The translations under genes were made by a program, and so were the position numbers. From positions 128,001 through 192,000 of the IMG/VR virus record IMGVR_UViG_3300035208_003026: a DNA stretch of 64,000 nucleotides; one strand, 5' to 3'. The DNA comes from a virus (Duplodnaviria; Caudoviricetes). Below are positions 50,223 to 60,250 of the stretch, piece by piece. The notes beneath the pieces were generated by a model, which was not told the DNA's origin, ran no database searches, and saw only the letters and a list, made by a program, of their open reading frames with translations. Positions within the stretch are counted from its first letter, which is position 1. Each line of letters begins with the position of its first letter.

Positions 50223-50432
50223 TACTTTAGTGGTTATATTATCTAAAATGGATATTTTAAGAATGTTAATGACTAAAAACGATTCTTGTAAAAATTAATG
50301 AGAATGATATCTTTTTAGGCTATATAGTAGCAGTAATTATATTCAAAGACAGATAGGTAAAATGTTCGATATATCCCAGAGTTAAGTTTGGAAAATTCTT
50401 CATGGAAAAAGATGGACGTTTATGGAGGTAAT

Positions 50433-51713
50433 TTGACTTCTTGGGATATTGGAATTATTGGGGCTGGTGTTGCTGGAGTATTTGCAGCTCTCCGTTTAGC
50501 AGAGAAACATAGACATTTAAAAGTTGTTGTCTTTGAGTTTGGGCCTCCACCACCAAATTGTCTACGGCAGGATCCTATTCATATAAAGCGTCGCCGAAGA
50601 CAATTAGAAGGTTGGCTTGGATGTTTCCCAACTGGTGATGGAAAGATTTATTTAGATGATGATACTCAAAAAGTATCAGAGATTGTAGATGGACGACGCG
50701 TTCGGCCGATTAAAGATTGGTTTGCCGAACAATTGGGTGAGGTAAATACATCCAAAATCATTAAACCAAAACAACCATCTCTTAACATAAAAAAGGCTAT
50801 ACAGGATAAGGGATTTGATCTTAATGTTCATTCATATGAACAATGGGTACCAGATCAGATTCATCAATTATCCAAGATTTCTGCTGAAAAAATCGAAGCT
50901 GCAGGTAATGTGTTTTTAAGTTTCGATACTGAAGTTTATAGCTTTTTAAAGAATGGGAAGAAATTTAGTGTTAATACATCTCAGGGTGATTTCAGTTGTA
51001 AGAAATTGATCATGAGTGTTGGGCGCACTGGTTGGAGATGGGTTAACTCTCAGTATAAAAATCTTGGACTTCTATCAGAAGAACGCGGAATGGTGAAATA
51101 TGGTGTTCGAGTTGAAATGCCATCAAGCGCTCTTAAAGACTTTAACAAATCTCATTGTTCATTAATTCGAAGTGATTTAGAAATTGGGCCTTTAAGCTGG
51201 ATGGGTTCAATCATTCAAGAAGATCATGAGGGTGTAACACTTGCTGCTTTTAGGTCTAATGAAGACCGTTGGAAGAGTGATAAAGTTTTCTTCTCTGTAC
51301 AGAAAAATATTCCATTTTCTGAGGCTTCAATACCATTAAGAGGCATTATTCCAACTGATGTTAAGAGTTATGTAGATAGAATAGCTCAGCTATCTCATTG
51401 TCTTTCTGGTGAGCGTGTTGGAAGAGAGAAGATCACAAACTTCTCAAAAGGTCTTGGTGATTTGGCATTAATGCCTGAGTATGGTTGGGTAACATCAACT
51501 CTTAAAGAGATAGAATCGATCTTTCCTAATTTGATTGGTCGAGGGTATTTTCACGTTCCAGACATTGATACAAATATAAGTACTATCAATATAGCAAATA
51601 ACCTAGAGACAGAAATTGATGGTTTGTTTGTTGCTGGTGAGAGTGCTGGTATTAAGGGAATAGCAGCTGCCGGTATAACTGGAGCTTGTGCTGCCGAAGG
51701 AGCCGCGAAATGA
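50433..51713 (+). CDS. FAD-dependent oxidoreductase (COG2509-like)
   Basis: IIGAGVAG Rossmann motif, GDGK, VGRTG, GVRVE, LET.IDGLFVAGESAG..GI..A...G. GGAGG precedes the TTG at 50433. Confidence 0.8.
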   Translation: MTSWDIGIIGAGVAGVFAALRLAEKHRHLKVVVFEFGPPPPNCLRQDPIHIKRRRRQLEGWLGCFPTGDGKIYLDDDTQKVSEIVDGRRVRPIKDWFAEQLGEVNTSKIIKPKQPSLNIKKAIQDKGFDLNVHSYEQWVPDQIHQLSKISAEKIEAAGNVFLSFDTEVYSFLKNGKKFSVNTSQGDFSCKKLIMSVGRTGWRWVNSQYKNLGLLSEERGMVKYGVRVEMPSSALKDFNKSHCSLIRSDLEIGPLSWMGSIIQEDHEGVTLAAFRSNEDRWKSDKVFFSVQKNIPFSEASIPLRGIIPTDVKSYVDRIAQLSHCLSGERVGREKITNFSKGLGDLALMPEYGWVTSTLKEIESIFPNLIGRGYFHVPDIDTNISTINIANNLETEIDGLFVAGESAGIKGIAAAGITGACAAEGAAK

Positions 51714-52102
51714 TGGTAAAAGCAAACTCTGGAAATACAACATCTAACTCATATAGTTCTGGTCATGATAATTACGACAAATATAAAGATCATGATCAAT
51801 TTGTATATGACGAGAATAGTTCTGGAAAGTCTTTTATAAAGCAAGATTCGGAACTGTATAATGAAGAAGAAGCTGCAATTCCAGGATCATCTGTTCGTGT
51901 AAAGTGTACTAATACTGATTGGAAGATTTACATAAACGGAGTTGAAGTCTTAGTTTTGAAGGAATCTAGATTCACGGCAAAGGAACGTGATTGGCTTCAA
52001 ACTACTCAAGGTTTCTTATTTTTGCTTAATGGGGCTAAGCAGGGTTGGAATTCCGTCTCTGAATTCAAGAGACAAATCAAAGACAGACCAGAGGTTCAAT
52101 GA
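51710..52102 (+). CDS. Hypothetical protein
   Basis: AAGGAG SD and ATGA overlap. Confidence 0.6.
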   Translation: MMVKANSGNTTSNSYSSGHDNYDKYKDHDQFVYDENSSGKSFIKQDSELYNEEEAAIPGSSVRVKCTNTDWKIYINGVEVLVLKESRFTAKERDWLQTTQGFLFLLNGAKQGWNSVSEFKRQIKDRPEVQ

Positions 52103-52287
52103 TTATTTTCCACAGCACAAAAAGAATACAAGATCAAGCGTTTATGATTTTTACAAACGAAGATGGTGCTATGATTCAGATTCCGGTAGATGATAAAACC
52201 CAATCCGTGTTTTTACATCATTTTGATCGTCTATCTCATGGAATGAAACCGGTCGAGGATGACTCTAGGGAAGCCTCACATAAGTGA
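52099..52287 (+). CDS. Hypothetical protein
   Basis: GAGGT SD and ATGA overlap. Confidence 0.55.
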   Translation: MIIFHSTKRIQDQAFMIFTNEDGAMIQIPVDDKTQSVFLHHFDRLSHGMKPVEDDSREASHK

Positions 52288-52302
52288 AGGAGTCCTCTTT
52301 TT

Positions 52303-52947
52303 ATGAGTTATGTTCAGTATGTAATCGACATAGAATCTACAGGGCTAGACCCTATTAAGAATGATATTATAGAAGTTTGTTTTTGGCGTCTTGGAGATGC
52401 TGAAAGTAAGACTTGGTGGTTGACACCTTTGTCTCCAGAGAATATCGAAGAGGAAGCTTTGCAGATAAATAAACATCTCAGAGAAGATATTCTTCACCAA
52501 ACAAAAGAAGGAAGAGAAAAATACAGACATCCATCTGAAGTTCTTCCTGAGATTGAAATGTGGCTAATGGAAGATGGAGCAGCCGCAGAAGAGCGTGTGT
52601 TCATTGGTCAGAACCCAATGTTCGATTACGAGTTCCTTCTTGCTCTTTGGCGCAAAATGAAGGTAGAAAAGGAGTTCCCGTTTGGTTATTGGATTCCTAA
52701 CCGTGATGGTACAGAGCGTAACCAAGGCTACATCATAGATACCATGCAACTCGCTCGATTCATTGATGTATGCACCGGAAAGAAGCGTGCTCGTTATGGT
52801 CTTGGAGCCTTGGTTAAAGACTTTGGCGTGACCAAATCAACAGCTCACAGAGCTGATGGTGACGTTAAAATGACTAAAGAACTGTATGAGAAAATGATTG
52901 GGGTTCTTAGAGATCCAATCATTGGAGCTTTTAACGAAACTTACTGA
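52303..52947 (+). CDS. DEDDh 3'-5' exonuclease (DnaQ-like)
   Basis: IDIESTG, GQNPMFD, IDT, AHRADGD. Confidence 0.9.
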   Translation: MSYVQYVIDIESTGLDPIKNDIIEVCFWRLGDAESKTWWLTPLSPENIEEEALQINKHLREDILHQTKEGREKYRHPSEVLPEIEMWLMEDGAAAEERVFIGQNPMFDYEFLLALWRKMKVEKEFPFGYWIPNRDGTERNQGYIIDTMQLARFIDVCTGKKRARYGLGALVKDFGVTKSTAHRADGDVKMTKELYEKMIGVLRDPIIGAFNETY

Positions 52948-52948
52948 T

Positions 52949-53074
52949 ATTGTGCAAAGAAAGCTCCACTGCTTTAGCCGTTTGAATAAATTCGGTATGG
53001 AACACACGAATTAAAAAGCCTTGAGAACGTAAGTTCAATAGGAAGCCCCTATTCTTTAGATTGGGGTAGTTCAC
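52949..53074 (+). mobile_element. 126-bp non-autonomous IS200/IS605-derived element (PATE-like, omegaRNA-like 3' end)
   Basis: Left AAGCTCCACTGCTTTAGCCG end motif; internal TTGAGAAC-GTAA-GTTCAA hairpin; right end GAAGCCCCTATTCTTTAGATTGGGGTAGTTCAC. Inserted directly after TGAT. Confidence 0.7.
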
Positions 53075-53086
53075 AACGAGAAGTAA

Positions 53087-53461
53087 ATGTTATCTAGCAT
53101 TGGCATTTTCAGGTACACTCCAGAGAAATTGTACATTGAGGTTGATCCTGGTATTGCTGATTACTATAGAAGTTTAATACCCAAATACTTCAAAGTACAT
53201 ACAACTCGATATGCTCCACATATCTCTGTTGTACGAGAAGAGAATCCCAATAATAAGTGGGGTTTGTATAATGGTGCTCAGTTTGTCTTTGAATATGATT
53301 CATACATACACAACGATGGAGGTGTGTATTGGTGGTTGAATGTTCGAAGTAAGATTCTGAGCAACCTTCGTGTTGAGCTTGGATTACCAAGATGGTCTAA
53401 GTTGTCAAGACCACCAGATGGATCTGATAACTTTCACATTACAATAGGTAATACTAAATAA
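53087..53461 (+). CDS. 2H phosphoesterase (two HxS/T motifs)
   Basis: APHISVV and NFHITIG. Confidence 0.75.
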   Translation: MLSSIGIFRYTPEKLYIEVDPGIADYYRSLIPKYFKVHTTRYAPHISVVREENPNNKWGLYNGAQFVFEYDSYIHNDGGVYWWLNVRSKILSNLRVELGLPRWSKLSRPPDGSDNFHITIGNTK

Positions 53462-53703
53462 TGAATGTAAGAATTGGAAAGAATCAAGAGATTTTTAAAG
53501 AGAACGGCGAAGTATCTTTTTCAGCCTCTGATAAATTAACATCTTTGGTGTATGAAATTCTTAGAGATGTTGCACCTTCAGGTGCGGTAGAAGGAAAACT
53601 TCGTCAGGTTGAAGAAGAATCAATTGATGGTGAAATTACATACACCAACGGTTGGTTGGCTAAGTATGCAAAACACTTAGCTGATAGAATTCGAAAACTA
53701 TGA
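53461..53703 (+). CDS. Hypothetical protein
   Basis: Coupled ORF. Confidence 0.6.
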   Translation: MNVRIGKNQEIFKENGEVSFSASDKLTSLVYEILRDVAPSGAVEGKLRQVEEESIDGEITYTNGWLAKYAKHLADRIRKL

Positions 53704-54554
53704 AGATACTTATTGGTTCTGGCAACTTTTCCGGCTCTAATCTTATGGTATCAAGGTGGCTGGAAAACATGCCACAGCATGAGTTTAAAGTAGCCGCATG
53801 GTACCGGAACCATAAGTATCTTAATACTATCGATTGGTGTATCGATTGTCTTCAAGATACTCGTGTTGGAGAATTGAACTATTTTGATGAACGTTTTGGT
53901 ATTCAAGGGCCTTGTGTAAATCATGATTTAGCTGATGAAATCATTGATGATTTACTACTTTGGAGCCCAGACTTAGTGATTTCTGATTGCGATTCGTTTA
54001 CTGTAGCTTTGTCTAAAGTTCTCGGAATACCTTTATGGTATTGTTCGGGAATGTTGCAAATGATCGGTATCGAACATGATCGTAAAGAAATACAAACTAA
54101 AAAATGGGATAGAATAAAGAGATACCTTGAGACGTTGCCTAAGGGAGACGCTTACCTAGTGTATTCTCCTTTATGTGACATTTCTTCACGTCCATTTTTA
54201 AAGAATGGTTTTGAGTGGATTCGACCGTACTCGATAACACCTCAGGAAGACACTGAGTTTTCAGATATTCGGAAGGCATTACCTGAGAAAGCCTTATTGA
54301 GTACTGGTGAGACATCTCTGGTATCGGATTGCGTGTATTCTGGAAGAACCACATTCATTTGTCCAGATCCGAATGATCCTGAACAGGTTCTAAATGCTCA
54401 GCTATTGGAATGGTATGGGTGCGGTCGAAACATTGGAAGGCCGCAAAGCATTGAGTTTGTAAAACGAATAACTCAAGGATACAACCAAAGCCCTGTGCTT
54501 TCTATTCAGAAATGGAAGCAACTAGACGAAAGATTGGAAGAATTCAAGAGTTGA
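53700..54554 (+). CDS. Divergent MJ1255/Glyco_trans_1_3-like glycosyltransferase
   Basis: MKILIG, PDLVISDCD, STGETSLVSDCVY.G, EQVLNA. Confidence 0.55.
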   Translation: MKILIGSGNFSGSNLMVSRWLENMPQHEFKVAAWYRNHKYLNTIDWCIDCLQDTRVGELNYFDERFGIQGPCVNHDLADEIIDDLLLWSPDLVISDCDSFTVALSKVLGIPLWYCSGMLQMIGIEHDRKEIQTKKWDRIKRYLETLPKGDAYLVYSPLCDISSRPFLKNGFEWIRPYSITPQEDTEFSDIRKALPEKALLSTGETSLVSDCVYSGRTTFICPDPNDPEQVLNAQLLEWYGCGRNIGRPQSIEFVKRITQGYNQSPVLSIQKWKQLDERLEEFKS

Positions 54555-54564
54555 AAGTTTTGTC

Positions 54565-54593
54565 TTGCAAACTTGATCTTGATGTGGTAGGTT
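54565..54593 (+). promoter_or_regulatory. Sigma70-type promoter, probably driving a leaderless transcript
   Basis: TTGCAA-17 nt-TAGGTT with an extended TG; the ATG lies 7 nt downstream and has no SD. Confidence 0.5.
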
Positions 54594-54599
54594 CGATGT

Positions 54600-55202
54600 A
54601 TGAACAGAGTTGCTTTTGACATTGGAAATGTTCTATGCCATGTGGATATCGGTGTTCTTTTCAAAACCCTGTTGGATTTATCTGTTGTAGAGTCCGAAAA
54701 ACAGGCACATGAATTCATGGATTCAATTCATGAACAACAAGACATCGGAGCATGTAATCTCAAACAAGGATTAGTTAGAGCCAATCCTCTGTTAAGCGAG
54801 GATGTAATAAAGAAATTACACGAAGTGTGGATTGATATCGCTCGTCCATCAGATGTAATGTTGAGTCTTGTTGAGGAGTTGATAGACAAACATGGATATG
54901 AAGTTTCGTTACTATCAAATATAGGACTTGATCATTCTGATATGTTGCGTCAGAAGTGTCCAGTTTTCAAGAGATGTAATCAGCACTTCTCTTGTGATAT
55001 TGGAATAAGTAAACCGTCAAAGAAATTCTATGAAAGCTTTATATCTAGATATGGATGGGATAGTAATGTATTGTTCTTTGATGATCGATTAGAGAATGTT
55101 CAAGCAGCGAATGGTTATCTTACAGGCGTTTTGTTTGACGTTGAGAAGTATGATTCTGATGAGCTTGCTGCGCAAGCAATGCGTAAGCATCTTATTTTGT
55201 AG
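54600..55202 (+). CDS. HAD-superfamily phosphatase (YihX-like)
   Basis: AFDIGNVL, LLSN, GISKP, FFDDRLENV. Confidence 0.85.
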   Translation: MNRVAFDIGNVLCHVDIGVLFKTLLDLSVVESEKQAHEFMDSIHEQQDIGACNLKQGLVRANPLLSEDVIKKLHEVWIDIARPSDVMLSLVEELIDKHGYEVSLLSNIGLDHSDMLRQKCPVFKRCNQHFSCDIGISKPSKKFYESFISRYGWDSNVLFFDDRLENVQAANGYLTGVLFDVEKYDSDELAAQAMRKHLIL

Positions 55203-55477: not shown

Positions 55478-55669
55478 GTGGATCATGATGAAGTAAAGAG
55501 ACAAGTTATTTTTCTGGCAAGAGAGGGTTTTCTATTGCCAGACTATCCGGAGTGTGGTAACATCTTCACCTCGATAGCGAAGCTTTGGCTAGCAAGTGTG
55601 ATACTTGCGGCAAAAGATCTCCAAATAGAAGCATATTTTCCCACAGGTATAAACAATGGCAAAAGTTAA
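55478..55669 (+). CDS. Hypothetical protein
   Basis: Short ORF overlapping the PARP start. Confidence 0.35.
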   Translation: MDHDEVKRQVIFLAREGFLLPDYPECGNIFTSIAKLWLASVILAAKDLQIEAYFPTGINNGKS

Positions 55670-57119
55670 AACTGATAAGCTTCCTGCATTCACTGATTAT
55701 GAAGTTCCTGTTGGCTGGATTTTGGAGCTTAACTTTTTTGATATGACTGGTGAAAAAGCTGGGACACGTGGTACGTCATCAAAGATGTATCATATGGAAC
55801 TTCAAATTGCTAAGGATGGTAGGTGTCAGCTTTTTACACAGTATGGACCTACTGGTAAAATACAAGCTTCTGAGTATCGAAATTTTGGAGTTGATCGTAC
55901 TGCCGCTGAAGCAGAATTTAATTCCATTAAGAAGTCAAAACTCAAAAAGGGGTATGTTGAAATTGATGTAGCTCAGCGAGTTATTGGGTCTGATCAAGCT
56001 AAGAAGCATGTTAAGGTAGTATCTTTTAAGAATGATAATGGTATTGTAGATTCAATTCAAAAGCCCAATCTACATGTAGAAACTTCTAGGATTATTTCTA
56101 CTTTGATGGGAGCAACTAATAAGTGGGTTATTCAAACGCTTAAATGTCCTCTTGGCCAATTAACAAATGATCAGGTTGATAAAGGGCGTCAATGTTTAGT
56201 AAATGCCAAACAGATTGTTTCATCATCTAAAGATACTAAAGAGTTATTAGATATTACTAATCAATTCTATGGACTAATTCCACACAACCTCGGATCTGGG
56301 GCTCGTGGTCAAATGTCTCATCTACTTCTTGATACAATTGAAAAAATTGATCAGAAGGAATATGATTTAGATACATTGTTAGATGCTAAAGCTATTGGAG
56401 CTACACTTGGTAGTGATTCTACTTATGATCAGTATAAATCACTAGATACTGAATTTGTTTTTATTAATCATACAGATCCTAGATTTCTATGGTTAGATAA
56501 ACTAATTCAAGATACCAAAGCATCTAACCATAAGCATCTTGGAAAGATTGTTTTACTGAATGCTTGGGATATTCAACGCAATAACGAGAGAGATCAATTT
56601 CTTATTAGAGCAAAACAGATTGCATCTCAATGTGGAAAACAAGTAATTCCAGATCAAATGTCTATAGTTACCAAACGAACTGATGTATACGATAAAACTC
56701 TTTTCGAAAATGCAAATATAATTCCTTTATTTCATGGAACTCGTACTCAAAACCTTACAGGAATTCTTAAACAGGGTATGTTGATCCGTCCATCTGGTGT
56801 TGTTATTAGCGGAAATATGTACGGAAATGCACTCTATAATGGAAAGTCGAGTAAAGCTATAAACTATACTGATATTAGATCATCATATTGGGCTAATGGA
56901 AATGATGATAAAGCATTTTTGTTTGTATCAGATTGCGCATTAGGAAATCAGTTTATAGCAAAATCATCTGGACAATATACATTAAAGTCTATTGAACCAT
57001 ATCATTCTGTGTGGGCTAAAGGTGGGCAGAGTGGTGTGATTAATGATGAGATGATGTTGTACAGAACAGATCAGCATAACATTAGATATTTGTTGGAGTT
57101 TACTTGTCTACAAAATTAA
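55656..57119 (+). CDS. Poly(ADP-ribose) polymerase with WGR, regulatory and catalytic domains
   Basis: WGR-like (SKMYHMEL...TQYGPTG...F....KSKLKKGY); regulatory (PLGQLT..Q, TNQFYGLIPH); catalytic H-Y-E (LFHGTR, GNMYGNALY, SSKAINY, ALG, YHSV, NDEMMLY...IRYL). Confidence 0.88.
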   Translation: MAKVKTDKLPAFTDYEVPVGWILELNFFDMTGEKAGTRGTSSKMYHMELQIAKDGRCQLFTQYGPTGKIQASEYRNFGVDRTAAEAEFNSIKKSKLKKGYVEIDVAQRVIGSDQAKKHVKVVSFKNDNGIVDSIQKPNLHVETSRIISTLMGATNKWVIQTLKCPLGQLTNDQVDKGRQCLVNAKQIVSSSKDTKELLDITNQFYGLIPHNLGSGARGQMSHLLLDTIEKIDQKEYDLDTLLDAKAIGATLGSDSTYDQYKSLDTEFVFINHTDPRFLWLDKLIQDTKASNHKHLGKIVLLNAWDIQRNNERDQFLIRAKQIASQCGKQVIPDQMSIVTKRTDVYDKTLFENANIIPLFHGTRTQNLTGILKQGMLIRPSGVVISGNMYGNALYNGKSSKAINYTDIRSSYWANGNDDKAFLFVSDCALGNQFIAKSSGQYTLKSIEPYHSVWAKGGQSGVINDEMMLYRTDQHNIRYLLEFTCLQN

Positions 57120-57125
57120 CAATAA

Positions 57126-57322
57126 ATCAAGTTTCAATGTAGTTGTGGTTTTATATGGACGACTACACCTAACAGTATCACTAATGGCCATTGGTGTTTG
57201 CGTTGTGCACATAAGGTCCCAATTACCATAGATGATATGCAAATACAAAGAAATGGTGTCCAGATTGTGCGTTGAAGAAACGAATAAATGGTTTAAAAAA
57301 GAGTAGAGCAAAGGTAAAGTAA
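57126..57322 (+). pseudogene. Decayed zinc-ribbon repeat relic
   Basis: IKFQCSCGFIWTTTPNSITNGHWCLRCA, then in another frame KWCPDCA...*; no start codon. Confidence 0.6.
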
Positions 57323-57325
57323 ACA

Positions 57326-57919
57326 ATGACACTTGATATTGTTCTGTTAAGTCTTTTGTGTTTGGGCCTCTTTGTAAGTGCCGTTTACGAAGCAATGTCC
57401 TGGGCAACCATCTTGATGGTCGTTAGTGGTATTTATTACCATTTCTGGCATCGGAATGTGTTTAAGATGATTGCTGACAACTATCAGAATATTATACCAA
57501 TCGGTATTGGGTATTTGGTAATTGGTATTGTGTGGTCGTTTGCTAAATGGGTTTTGCTTCTGTTAAAGTTCAAAGCTTTCAGAAACGAGAATTGGGCTGC
57601 GTACAACAACGATGCGTTGAGATATAATGGCCCAAGAACGTTTCAAGGAATCCTTATTTCAGATACCCCAAAAGCATCTAGGTTCAAGCCAGAAATTGTT
57701 GGTTGGATGTGTTGGTGGCCGCTTTCCGCGATTGGAACGTTAATCAATGATCCTGTCAGGAAGGCTTTTTATTTCGCGTTCGATATGCTTGCTGGTTCAT
57801 ATCAGCGAATTGCTGATAAGATTGTTCCAAAGATGGAAGAGTCTGCTGGTAAGCACGTTGATTCCAGATCAGAAACCGTCGAAGAATTCGCACAACGTAT
57901 TGAAAGGCAAAGACGTTGA
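57326..57919 (+). CDS. Membrane protein
   Basis: Several hydrophobic segments and GWMCWWPLS. Confidence 0.7.
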   Translation: MTLDIVLLSLLCLGLFVSAVYEAMSWATILMVVSGIYYHFWHRNVFKMIADNYQNIIPIGIGYLVIGIVWSFAKWVLLLLKFKAFRNENWAAYNNDALRYNGPRTFQGILISDTPKASRFKPEIVGWMCWWPLSAIGTLINDPVRKAFYFAFDMLAGSYQRIADKIVPKMEESAGKHVDSRSETVEEFAQRIERQRR

Positions 57920-58211: not shown

Positions 58212-59330
58212 ATGAGAGATACTCTATTAGAGAACAAAGCTCTGCTCTATGTAGCTACCACTGGGGCAGGTCTTTCATTTCAGTACAACCTTTGGAAGAA
58301 GCCTGGATGCTCGAAGTATCTAGTTGGCTTCTTTACGCCGTATGCAAAAACTGAATTGCAGGAGTTCATTGGATACGAACCCGAAGGATCGTTCGTATCC
58401 AAAGAAGTTGCATATGACTTGGCAATGGCTTCGTATATTCGAGCTGCTAAGTTCAAAGTTCAGGAAGCTAGTGATGGTGAGCCTATTGGTATTGGTATTA
58501 CCGCTGCGGTTGCCACAAATCGAATCCCCCGTGGCGAACAAAGGGCTTTTATTTGTGTTATTACTAAAGACAAAGCCCTTCTTCATGAAGTAAAATTGGA
58601 AAAGACACTAGGCGAAAGTCATCGTGAGGCTCATGATCAAATCATCGCAGCTGAGGCTGAGAATGTCTTGATTTGCGCCATTAATTGGATGACTCACCCG
58701 TATACCAATTGTACAAATGAAGCATTGGATAGGTTTTACCAATATCCAACATTCCTTGCTAACTCCAGAACGAAAGATTCTTTCGGAGCGTCTCTGTATC
58801 TCCCAGCATCTCTAAATCCAATTCATGATGGTCACAGAGAGCTTGCTCGAACTGCAGAATCTGTTTGTGTTGGCGCTTTAAGTGATGGTGGCTGTAAGTA
58901 TCTAATTTCAACAGTGAGCCCTCATAAGGGTGAAATGACTCTGCAGGAAATGTTATTCAAGGCCGGAATGTTGCGAGCCGAAAAAACGTTCCTGGGTTTT
59001 GAATTTACCAAAGATGAACCTTTGTTTTTGGACAAAGCCAGGAAGCGTCCGAATTCCATTTTTATAATTGGTGCAGATACAATGGAACGGTTCCTTGATT
59101 CGAAATGGGGGCCGAATCCTGAAGAGCTTCTTAAAGAACTAAAAGAACTAAAAACTACTTTCTTGGTAATGGGTCGAGTTGTTGATGGTGTTTTTAAGAC
59201 CACCGATGACATTACAGTGCCAAATGGTTACAAAGATCTGTTTGTACCAATGGATGGTAGGGTTGATATTTCATCAACTGAGATTAGAGAAAAATCAGCT
59301 GTAGAAACATTAGAGGTAATTAATGGCTAA
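58212..59330 (+). CDS. CinA/PncC-like domain fused to a NadD-like nucleotidyltransferase
   Basis: N-terminal TTGAG...PGCS...PYA...FVSKEVA..LA...GIGITA (CinA_C-like); C-terminal ASLNPIHDGH (HxGH), IIGADT, DISSTEIR. Confidence 0.78.
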   Translation: MRDTLLENKALLYVATTGAGLSFQYNLWKKPGCSKYLVGFFTPYAKTELQEFIGYEPEGSFVSKEVAYDLAMASYIRAAKFKVQEASDGEPIGIGITAAVATNRIPRGEQRAFICVITKDKALLHEVKLEKTLGESHREAHDQIIAAEAENVLICAINWMTHPYTNCTNEALDRFYQYPTFLANSRTKDSFGASLYLPASLNPIHDGHRELARTAESVCVGALSDGGCKYLISTVSPHKGEMTLQEMLFKAGMLRAEKTFLGFEFTKDEPLFLDKARKRPNSIFIIGADTMERFLDSKWGPNPEELLKELKELKTTFLVMGRVVDGVFKTTDDITVPNGYKDLFVPMDGRVDISSTEIREKSAVETLEVING

Positions 59331-59926: not shown

Positions 59927-60250
59927 TCAGCTGATGGGTGGGACAATTGATAGATGTTGCGTTTTGATAGAAGCAATTACATCTACCATATTACAAATCC
60001 AAACAGTATCACCATTCACAGATAGTGGTTCTGCATGAGATGCATCAAAGACAACTTCATCTCCCTTTTCTAGTTCTGGTTTTGTAAATGTTCCTTGAAC
60101 TAGTTCACCAGGACCAACCTCTACAATCTTTCCAATCCTAAGATTGCCTGGTCTTGAAGTCTGAGGAAGGAAGATTCCTCCAGATGTTTGCCCCATTCCA
60201 CCTTCTTGAACATTAATTGCTACATTTCCATTTCTCATTTTCAGATGCAT
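59927..60250 (-). CDS. groES: Co-chaperonin GroES
   Basis: TSGGIFLP, GKIVEVGPG, GDEVVF, DVIA; AGGAGA SD. Confidence 0.88.
   Translation of the reverse strand: MHLKMRNGNVAINVQEGGMGQTSGGIFLPQTSRPGNLRIGKIVEVGPGELVQGTFTKPELEKGDEVVFDASHAEPLSVNGDTVWICNMVDVIASIKTQHLSIVPPIS

Follow-up and report, generated by a model that had tools for sequence, protein, structure and literature searches.

Compact poly(ADP-ribose) polymerases (PARPs) composed of a WGR domain, a helical domain (HD) and an ADP-ribosyltransferase (ART) catalytic domain with the H-Y-E triad, and devoid of zinc fingers, have been described in the bacteria Herpetosiphon aurantiacus (HaPARP) and Clostridioides difficile CD160 (CdPARP). Both produce poly(ADP-ribose) in vitro, in a DNA-dependent manner in the case of HaPARP, and cognate glycohydrolases reverse the modification (PMC8120803). 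In bacterial PARPs the tryptophan of the W-G-R motif is often replaced by tyrosine (PMC5966428). Among phages, PARP genes were listed in Aeromonas phage Aeh1 and Cellulophaga phage phi4:1 (Perina et al. 2014, PMC4245714), and some phage ARTs were reported to be close to cellular PARPs and possibly able to poly-ADP-ribosylate (Iyer et al. 2022, PMC9503650). The gp111 protein of Klebsiella phage vB_KpM_FBKp34 (QQV91759.1), with relatives in phages KP13-16 and 05F01, is named 'poly [ADP-ribose] polymerase' in GenBank, and its WGR, PARP_reg and PARP catalytic domains were confirmed here by Pfam; the paper describing the FBKp34 genome does not mention the gene. Here, we analysed a stretch of 64,000 nucleotides (the window), bases 128001-192000 of the 208,980-bp IMG/VR virus record IMGVR_UViG_3300035208_003026, which encodes a PARP of this three-domain type. 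We consider it fairly probable that the protein serves phage DNA metabolism as an ADP-ribosyltransferase which is gated by a ligand and consumes NAD, its action being possibly reversible through a macrodomain protein.

Since phage PARPs appear in both earlier surveys and FBKp34 gp111 has the full architecture, the novelty implied by the initial annotation of this locus does not hold: the phage PARP is already on record as a gene type and is not a new kind of system. By tblastn, PARP-like genes were present in 16 phage records, belonging to Klebsiella, Xanthomonas, Stenotrophomonas and Cellulophaga phages and to two uncultured huge phages. FBKp34 gp111 resembles the PARP studied here in lying among nucleotide-metabolism genes, with an anaerobic ribonucleotide reductase nearby, but it is only 428 aa long, is about 26% identical in an alignment covering 85% of the query, has retained a canonical F-G-R-V-G motif and comes from a cultured 141-kb phage, whereas the present gene belongs to an uncultured huge phage.

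The gene starts with ATG and encodes 487 aa, the start codon being backed by an N-terminal alignment with 35 homologues. It is present in a single copy, as a six-frame search of the genome gave one PF00644 match (57.3 bits). Its parts are as follows.

55656-57119, + strand: PARP gene (open reading frame, ORF; three Pfam domains; phmmer search of the PDB)
55713-55985, + strand: WGR domain, approximately residues 20-110, with the motif Y63-G64-P65 and not W-G-R (Pfam, model, alignments)
55986-56075, + strand: flexible linker, residues 111-140 (low predicted local distance difference test score, pLDDT; variable in the family alignment)
56076-56453, + strand: helical (autoinhibitory) domain, residues 141-266 (Pfam PARP_reg; model helices 141-262)
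56454-57116, + strand: ART catalytic domain, residues 267-487, with H360, G361, Y394, K400, Y404 and E465 (Pfam; alignment to PARP1)

All three domains scored above the Pfam cut-offs: WGR at residues 38-104 (30.2 bits, cut-off 22), PARP_reg at residues 159-266 (50.6 bits, cut-off 26.8) and the PARP catalytic domain PF00644 at residues 281-458 (58.9 bits, cut-off 26.7). They follow one another in the order known from PARP2 and PARP3, and no virion or MuF-type domain was found fused to them by Pfam. The alignment with PARP1 places H360 (in LFHGTR), Y394 and E465 (in NDE) at the triad positions H862, Y896 and E988, and G361, K400 and Y404 at G863, K903 and Y907. Residue conservation was scored on 36 family sequences with 47-78% identity, and H360, G361, Y394, K400, Y404, N463, D464 and E465 proved invariant in every one of them. 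Thus, both the three-domain architecture and the intact triad given in the initial annotation were confirmed. The helical domain is preserved as well: its 'LDTLLDA' segment aligns to 'LDNLLDI' of PARP1, with L238, D239, L241 and D243 corresponding to PARP1 L765, D766, L768 and D770; the two leucines are invariant and the two aspartates nearly so. Taken from its sequence, the protein is predicted to be a functional NAD+-dependent ADP-ribosyltransferase of the H-Y-E class and of PARP1/2/3 architecture. It may attach single ADP-ribose units, short oligomers or polymers; of the residues relevant to this choice, an equivalent of PARP1 M890 is present (M388) and K400 is invariant, while PARP1 Y986 is replaced by N463.

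The same relationship was found in searches of the PDB, where phmmer ranked PARP1 first (E 1e-18), followed by PARP2, PARP4 and PARP3. The family profile gave 151 bits to PARP1, 148 to PARP2, 109 to PARP3, 95 to PARP4 and 44 to tankyrase. An AlphaFold2 model built from the 36 family members reached a pLDDT of 84.5 and a predicted template-modelling score (pTM) of 0.73, with the linker between the WGR and helical domains (residues 123-135, pLDDT <50) and the donor loop (379-386) poorly defined; the WGR domain is formed by strands within residues 22-76 and a helix at 81-97. In Foldseek, all three domains matched PARP1 WGR-CAT bound to a double-strand break (4dqy_C, template-modelling score, TM, 0.67/0.71; 7s6h, E 4e-26) and PARP2 on DNA (7aeo and 6x0m), and the ART fold matched PARP1 catalytic-domain structures with TMt 0.72-0.78 and E ~1e-20. 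The human PARP1 and PARP2 WGR-CAT structures (4dqy, 7s6h, 7aeo, 6x0l) are therefore the best profile and fold matches over the whole protein, and the equivalents of PARP1 H862, G863, Y896, K903, Y907, E988, D766 and D770 are conserved in the phage. Identity is nevertheless only about 20%, and the phage protein has no zinc fingers, no BRCT domain and no long basic N-terminal tail; moreover, R591/R153 is changed to Pro, N127 to Thr and Y986 to Asn, and the first WGR loop carries an 8-residue insertion typical of the subfamily. Human PARP3 has the same three-domain layout but is a more distant match with the whole-protein profile (109 bits against about 150 for PARP1/2), and it retains the WGR arginine, R103.

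The Alt and Mod ARTs of phage T4 belong to the R-S-E class. The phage PARP shows no similarity to that family: its Pfam and PHROG matches are of the PARP type only (phrog_23333) and its motif is H-Y-E, so the separation from the Alt/Mod enzymes made in the initial annotation is correct. T4 Alt, ModA and ModB are likewise phage-encoded NAD+-dependent ADP-ribosyltransferases, but these mono-ARTs are unrelated to it and have neither a WGR nor a helical domain (PMC8120803).

The PARP gene clearly lies in a phage, as had been stated in the initial annotation: the virus record encodes a baseplate wedge protein, a DnaB-like helicase and other DNA helicases, ribonucleotide reductase and ThyX within the window, together with a protein of the IMPDH/GMP-reductase family and a CCA-adding enzyme. 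By the CheckV estimate of about 49% completeness for the record, the whole genome would be near 400 kb. More than 287 PARP homologues were found at E <= 1e-5; nearly all of the 120 listed homologues are 480-510 aa long, with the same three domains and 45-78% identity, and several of these reside on contigs of 240-459 kb. In IMG/VR, 13 contigs with lengths of 54-459 kb carry a member of the family. When 1.84 billion cluster representatives were searched exhaustively, 2152 clusters passed E <= 1e-3 and 31 passed E <= 1e-30, and 150 metagenomic relatives of 400-720 aa scored at least 91 bits in a single-sequence search, compared with 70 bits for human PARP1. Among bacterial genomes the sole match was a 2.8-kb contig in an Omnitrophota metagenome-assembled genome bin, which is probably phage carry-over. 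Megablast of the PARP gene against phage records gave no match.

One could suppose that such a gene was captured recently and is decaying or non-functional. Horizontal movement has been proposed for PARP genes, whose distribution is patchy (PMC4245714), and the region downstream of PARP is in flux, with a zinc-finger remnant in this phage and homing endonucleases in relatives. However, the ORF is intact, the more than 287 homologues are full-length, synteny is conserved, and the catalytic and structural residues do not vary among the 36 sequences. These conservation data effectively refute decay, which we regard as barely conceivable. From this conservation and synteny, PARP can be read as a core gene that a clade of huge phages, all uncultured, has inherited vertically and kept under purifying selection, and not as a recent stray.

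The WGR domain, which is expected to sense the activating ligand, deviates from the canonical pattern. Across the family the motif reads [Y/W/F]-G-[P/A]-T-G, position 63 being Y, W, F or H, and position 65 being proline in 29 sequences and alanine in the remaining 7; at position 40, threonine is found in 27 of the 36 and serine in 9. The phage 'yGptG' aligns with W589-G590-R591-V-G of PARP1 (family profile) and with WGRVG of PARP3, and P65 occupies the position of PARP1 R591, PARP2 R153 and PARP3 R103. In an ungapped alignment made via PARP3, which is weak (E 1e-4), T/S40 falls on PARP2 N127, Y/W/F63 on W151, which stacks on the 5' ribose, and K43 and Y45, both invariant, on K130 and Y132, which contact the DNA backbone at the 5' side. 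In PARP2, R153 binds phosphate at the 3' side of the break and, in addition, N127; the R153A and N127A variants have essentially no activity and no longer form stable complexes with DNA, while R591 of PARP1 bridges the WGR domain and zinc finger 1 (Obaji et al. 2018, PMC6294510). Approximately half of the PARP2 DNA-recognition apparatus thus appears to be kept, whereas the proposed Arg/Asn switch pair is gone. R75 is invariant in the 36 sequences and, with the equally invariant basic residues K98 and R108, might compensate for the lost arginine.

The arginine is kept, as [Y/F]-G-R-V/T-G/D, in a distant huge-phage subclade (L010, L012, L014), in FBKp34 gp111 and in seven relatives outside the family. 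By this comparison its loss is derived, it extends to the entire subfamily, and this subfamily is found in viruses only. HaPARP and CdPARP differ in the same respect, as they retain the arginine in a Y-G-R motif and are paired with poly(ADP-ribose) glycohydrolase (PARG), while in the phage the arginine is lost and no PARG was found. Activation by DNA breaks, as inferred in the initial annotation from the WGR domain, therefore stands only in part: the domain itself and K43/Y45 are retained, but the arginine and the N127 partner are replaced. As PARP2 requires this arginine, canonical DNA-break activation is not assured; because both the arginine and its asparagine partner are lost, the activating ligand, or the way its binding is coupled to catalysis, is probably not the same as for PARP2, which responds to a 5'-phosphorylated nick or break.

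An altered WGR switch would also fit regulation other than damage sensing, and this brings in another possible function of the enzyme. The PARP could be an effector of host takeover or counter-defence which ADP-ribosylates RNA polymerase, translation factors, nucleases or defence proteins, similar in function to Alt, ModA and ModB but unrelated in sequence, with the WGR domain serving only to localise it to DNA. Phage ARTs of known role do act on host proteins (PMC8120803), and ARTs are enriched in jumbo phages, where they are thought to act in conflicts (PMC9503650). Nevertheless, we find this explanation rather unlikely. A complete helical domain and WGR domain are maintained here under strong purifying selection, and a constitutive effector needs neither; the absence of a fused virion or MuF-type domain also speaks against it. 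Furthermore, the gene is located in a block of DNA- and nucleotide-metabolism genes, and not among early host-takeover genes or genes of injected proteins. In 8 of the 14 loci from IMG/VR used to draw synteny, PARP is preceded by a conserved block consisting of a FAD-oxidoreductase-like gene, two small ORFs, an RNase T-type exonuclease, a glycosyltransferase (GT)-like gene and a HAD hydrolase, and the IMPDH/GMP-reductase gene lies a few genes downstream.

If the enzyme labels its targets with ADP-ribose, removal of the label may also be encoded by the phage. A 165-aa macrodomain protein is encoded at record positions 203485-203982 (L001:1399-1896), 18 kb downstream of PARP and about 11.5 kb past the end of the window; a gene resembling GDP-mannose dehydratases/epimerases comes after it. 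The first search gave only a weak Macro match, but the profile follow-up was solid, with E 4e-35 to SCO6735 of Streptomyces (5e3b) and a PRIGCG motif, and with further matches to BT1257 of Bacteroides and to the ALC1 macrodomain (1e-6). Orthologues occur in all nine related contigs that could be searched, that is in 10 of 10 genomes when this one is included. The initial annotation had suggested looking for PARG or macrodomain genes; a SCO6735-like macrodomain was thus found in this phage and its relatives, but a PARG was not. SCO6735 is induced by DNA damage and strips PARP-made, glutamate-linked mono-ADP-ribose from protein (PMC5087735), and it also strips DarT-made, thymidine-linked ADP-ribose from DNA (PMC9411070).

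PARP1-3 are said in reviews to ADP-ribosylate nucleic acids as well. The substrate of the phage PARP could be phosphorylated ends of phage DNA or RNA, which would receive ADP-ribose caps to be removed by the macrodomain. The macrodomain is of the ALC1-like class and SCO6735 hydrolyses DNA-linked ADP-ribose (thymidine-ADPr, PMC9411070), and an exonuclease and DNA-metabolism genes are neighbours of PARP. However, the activity of SCO6735 on DNA concerns base adducts of the DarT type and not phosphate-linked ends, and the macrodomain could equally be an anti-DarT counter-defence, as its family is present in hundreds of phages without PARP. We judge nucleic-acid capping as the primary function improbable. 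An anti-DarT role of the macrodomain, independent of PARP, is as plausible as a writer-eraser pair.

A candidate gene for NAD supply was located close to PARP:

58212-59330, + strand: fusion of a PncC(CinA)-like and a NadD-like protein, 372 aa, 1.1 kb downstream of PARP (Pfam, profile, fold)

Pfam placed CTP_transf_like at residues 200-361 of this protein, a single-sequence search of the PDB gave no match, and the atlas label was merely 'cytidylyltransferase'. With the family profile, NadD was matched at E 6e-6 (8aih/1kam), the H-x-G-H and ISST-x-x-R motifs being conserved, and the N-terminal half showed a weak match to CinA (2a9s, E 0.03). The AlphaFold2 model was of high quality (pLDDT 91.8, pTM 0.90); in Foldseek its C-terminal half matched NadD (2h2a, 1kaq, TMt 0.55-0.59) and its N-terminal half stand-alone CinA/PncC (5vu3, 2a9s, TMt 0.66-0.69). 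An assignment as nicotinamide mononucleotide adenylyltransferase (NMNAT) was in this way refined, by profile and fold searches, to a PncC/CinA-NadD fusion. The fusion has 89 homologues, some of which are on contigs of 190-433 kb; this family is widespread in large phages and not tied to PARP. Its position next to PARP was seen in this phage only, and a general link between the two genes was rejected, as the fusion is absent from nine related PARP contigs. There is a hint of possible linkage in closer relatives: the PARP homologues P0017 and P0120 are on contigs of the same lengths (5539 and 6772 bp) as those of the PncC-NadD homologues P0282 and P0279, respectively.

A Nampt-family gene was found in all three near-complete relatives, while searches of the half-complete contig of this phage for NUDIX, ADP-ribosylhydrolase (ARH), Nampt and NadE genes gave none. 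In the complete 459-kb relative G002 (IMGVR_UViG_3300028920_000022), genes of the Nampt family (401332-402000), the ARH family (403070-403972) and the macrodomain (408356-408805) cluster within about 7 kb (401.3-408.8 kb), roughly 20 kb from its PARP, in what looks like a small NAD/ADP-ribose island.

Hyperactivated PARP drains NAD+ in eukaryotic cells. A phage PARP could be used analogously, as a device which depletes NAD+ and so shuts down host metabolism or NAD+-dependent defences, and the initial annotation had listed a drain of NAD+ among its possible roles. NAD+ is indeed a central battleground of phage-host conflict (PMC9503650). Here, however, genes of NAD+ synthesis or salvage are encoded, PncC-NadD in this phage and Nampt in its relatives, the intact autoinhibitory domain argues for tightly gated activity, and phage replication itself requires NAD+-dependent enzymes. 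We therefore hold depletion of NAD+ to be highly improbable. Since the whole autoinhibitory apparatus is conserved and NAD+ synthesis genes are co-encoded, the PARP does not look like a constitutive toxin, whether for host takeover or for draining NAD+.

The explanation we prefer remains that of a gated ADP-ribosyltransferase serving phage DNA metabolism, and its course can be outlined as follows. In the resting state the helical domain would hold the NAD+ site closed, and a nucleic-acid ligand bound to the WGR domain would open it. The PARP would then ADP-ribosylate itself, together with proteins of phage or host origin that act on DNA while it is replicated, recombined or packaged. The clade-wide macrodomain of the SCO6735/TARG1 class could take off the protein-proximal ADP-ribose, in a system where no PARG was found, and in this phage the nearby PncC-NadD fusion may help to replace the NAD+ consumed. 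A more far-reaching version, which seems to us quite unlikely, assumes that the sensor, which lacks the Arg/Asn switch and has an extra WGR loop, has been rewired. Its trigger would not be an ordinary nick or break but, for example, modified DNA, a DNA end peculiar to the phage, or an intermediate of replication or packaging. The PARP, the macrodomain and the NAD+ synthesis genes would then make up a system of reversible ADP-ribosylation whose substrates include phage nucleic-acid ends and not proteins alone.

A number of observations weigh against the explanation we prefer. With regard to catalysis, human PARP3 and PARP4 are mono-ARTs in spite of their H-Y-E triad, which is thus not enough for polymerase activity, and PARP3 demonstrates that the WGR-HD-ART layout itself can belong to a mono-transferase; in the phage, N463 stands at the position of PARP1 Y986. 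With regard to gating, the whole subfamily has Pro or Ala in place of the WGR arginine, and Thr or Ser in place of its asparagine partner. A profile of the WGR domain alone is divergent and has a single match in the PDB, the PARP3 WGR domain (2eoc, E 1e-4), and for this reason the WGR residue mappings are approximate. As to the eraser, the macrodomain gene never adjoins PARP, the distance being 11-31 kb in most genomes and 161 kb in one, and its family was found in 493 phage records, most of them without PARP. The nine macrodomain-bearing relatives are also kin. Since the co-occurrence comes from one clade and the family is widespread without PARP, it is weak evidence of coupling. For PARG, neither PF05028 nor PF10021 gave a match in this contig, which is about 49% complete; among relatives, PF10021 was found in none of five and PF05028 exceeded the cut-off in none of nine, including two contigs rated 100% complete. 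An ARH gene is present in only three of the nine. No PARP was found within 10 kb of 17 viral loci with PncC-NadD homologues, nor in four short metagenome loci carrying them. Finally, a literature search returned no functional or biochemical data on any phage PARP.

The surroundings of the gene deserve a brief description. In this phage the upstream block spans 50388-55202 and consists of a 441-aa FAD/GidA/HI0933-like oxidoreductase, two small ORFs, the RNase T/DnaQ-type exonuclease, the GT-like protein, whose glycosyltransferase match is limited to its C-terminal part, and the HAD hydrolase; the block possibly serves modification of nucleotides or DNA. A 124-aa ORF at 53087-53461 has a sub-threshold match to 2H phosphoesterases (PF22547, E 2e-4) and a match to phrog_12204; 2H enzymes belong to NAD/ADP-ribose and RNA-repair networks. 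In the 200-bp gap after the PARP stop codon, positions 57126-57305 hold a frameshifted, stop-interrupted remnant of about 60 aa in two frames, with a CxxC...CPDC pattern. It derives from a 525-aa gene with multi-CxxC treble-clef zinc fingers (DUF4379) and CapR (tblastn E 5e-9), which is intact after PARP in L002, L003, L004 and L014. In two other relatives a LAGLIDADG homing endonuclease is encoded directly downstream of PARP (L005:9574-10560 and L006:9557-10357), and the site just after PARP seems to attract mobile or variable genes. The immediate downstream genes were rejected as PARP partners, as in relatives they are the variable LAGLIDADG endonuclease and the multi-CxxC zinc-finger/CapR protein; the small ORFs downstream of PARP had no Pfam matches and are not conserved.

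In the distant subclade (L010-L014), PARP is situated between an HSP20 gene and a GroEL-type chaperonin gene. In L007 a GroES (Cpn10) homologue adjoins the IMPDH gene, and a homologous ORF is located at 59927-60250 of the window on the minus strand. The PARP gene (55638-55658) and the next ORF (57308-57328) share the start context GGTA-N3-5-AAACAATG, which may be a phage-typical signal for the initiation of translation. Promoter and terminator scans performed no better on these data than on shuffled sequence.

PARPs are central DNA-damage signalling enzymes of eukaryotes, while their role in bacteria is obscure, and a large and strongly conserved family in huge phages offers a good entry point to PARP signalling outside eukaryotes. 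That the whole family has lost the WGR arginine amounts to a natural experiment on the allosteric switch between the WGR and helical domains. If the phage PARP is still ligand-gated, the coupling mechanism must be less rigid than the PARP1/2 model suggests; if ligand gating has been lost, the WGR domain would have another job.

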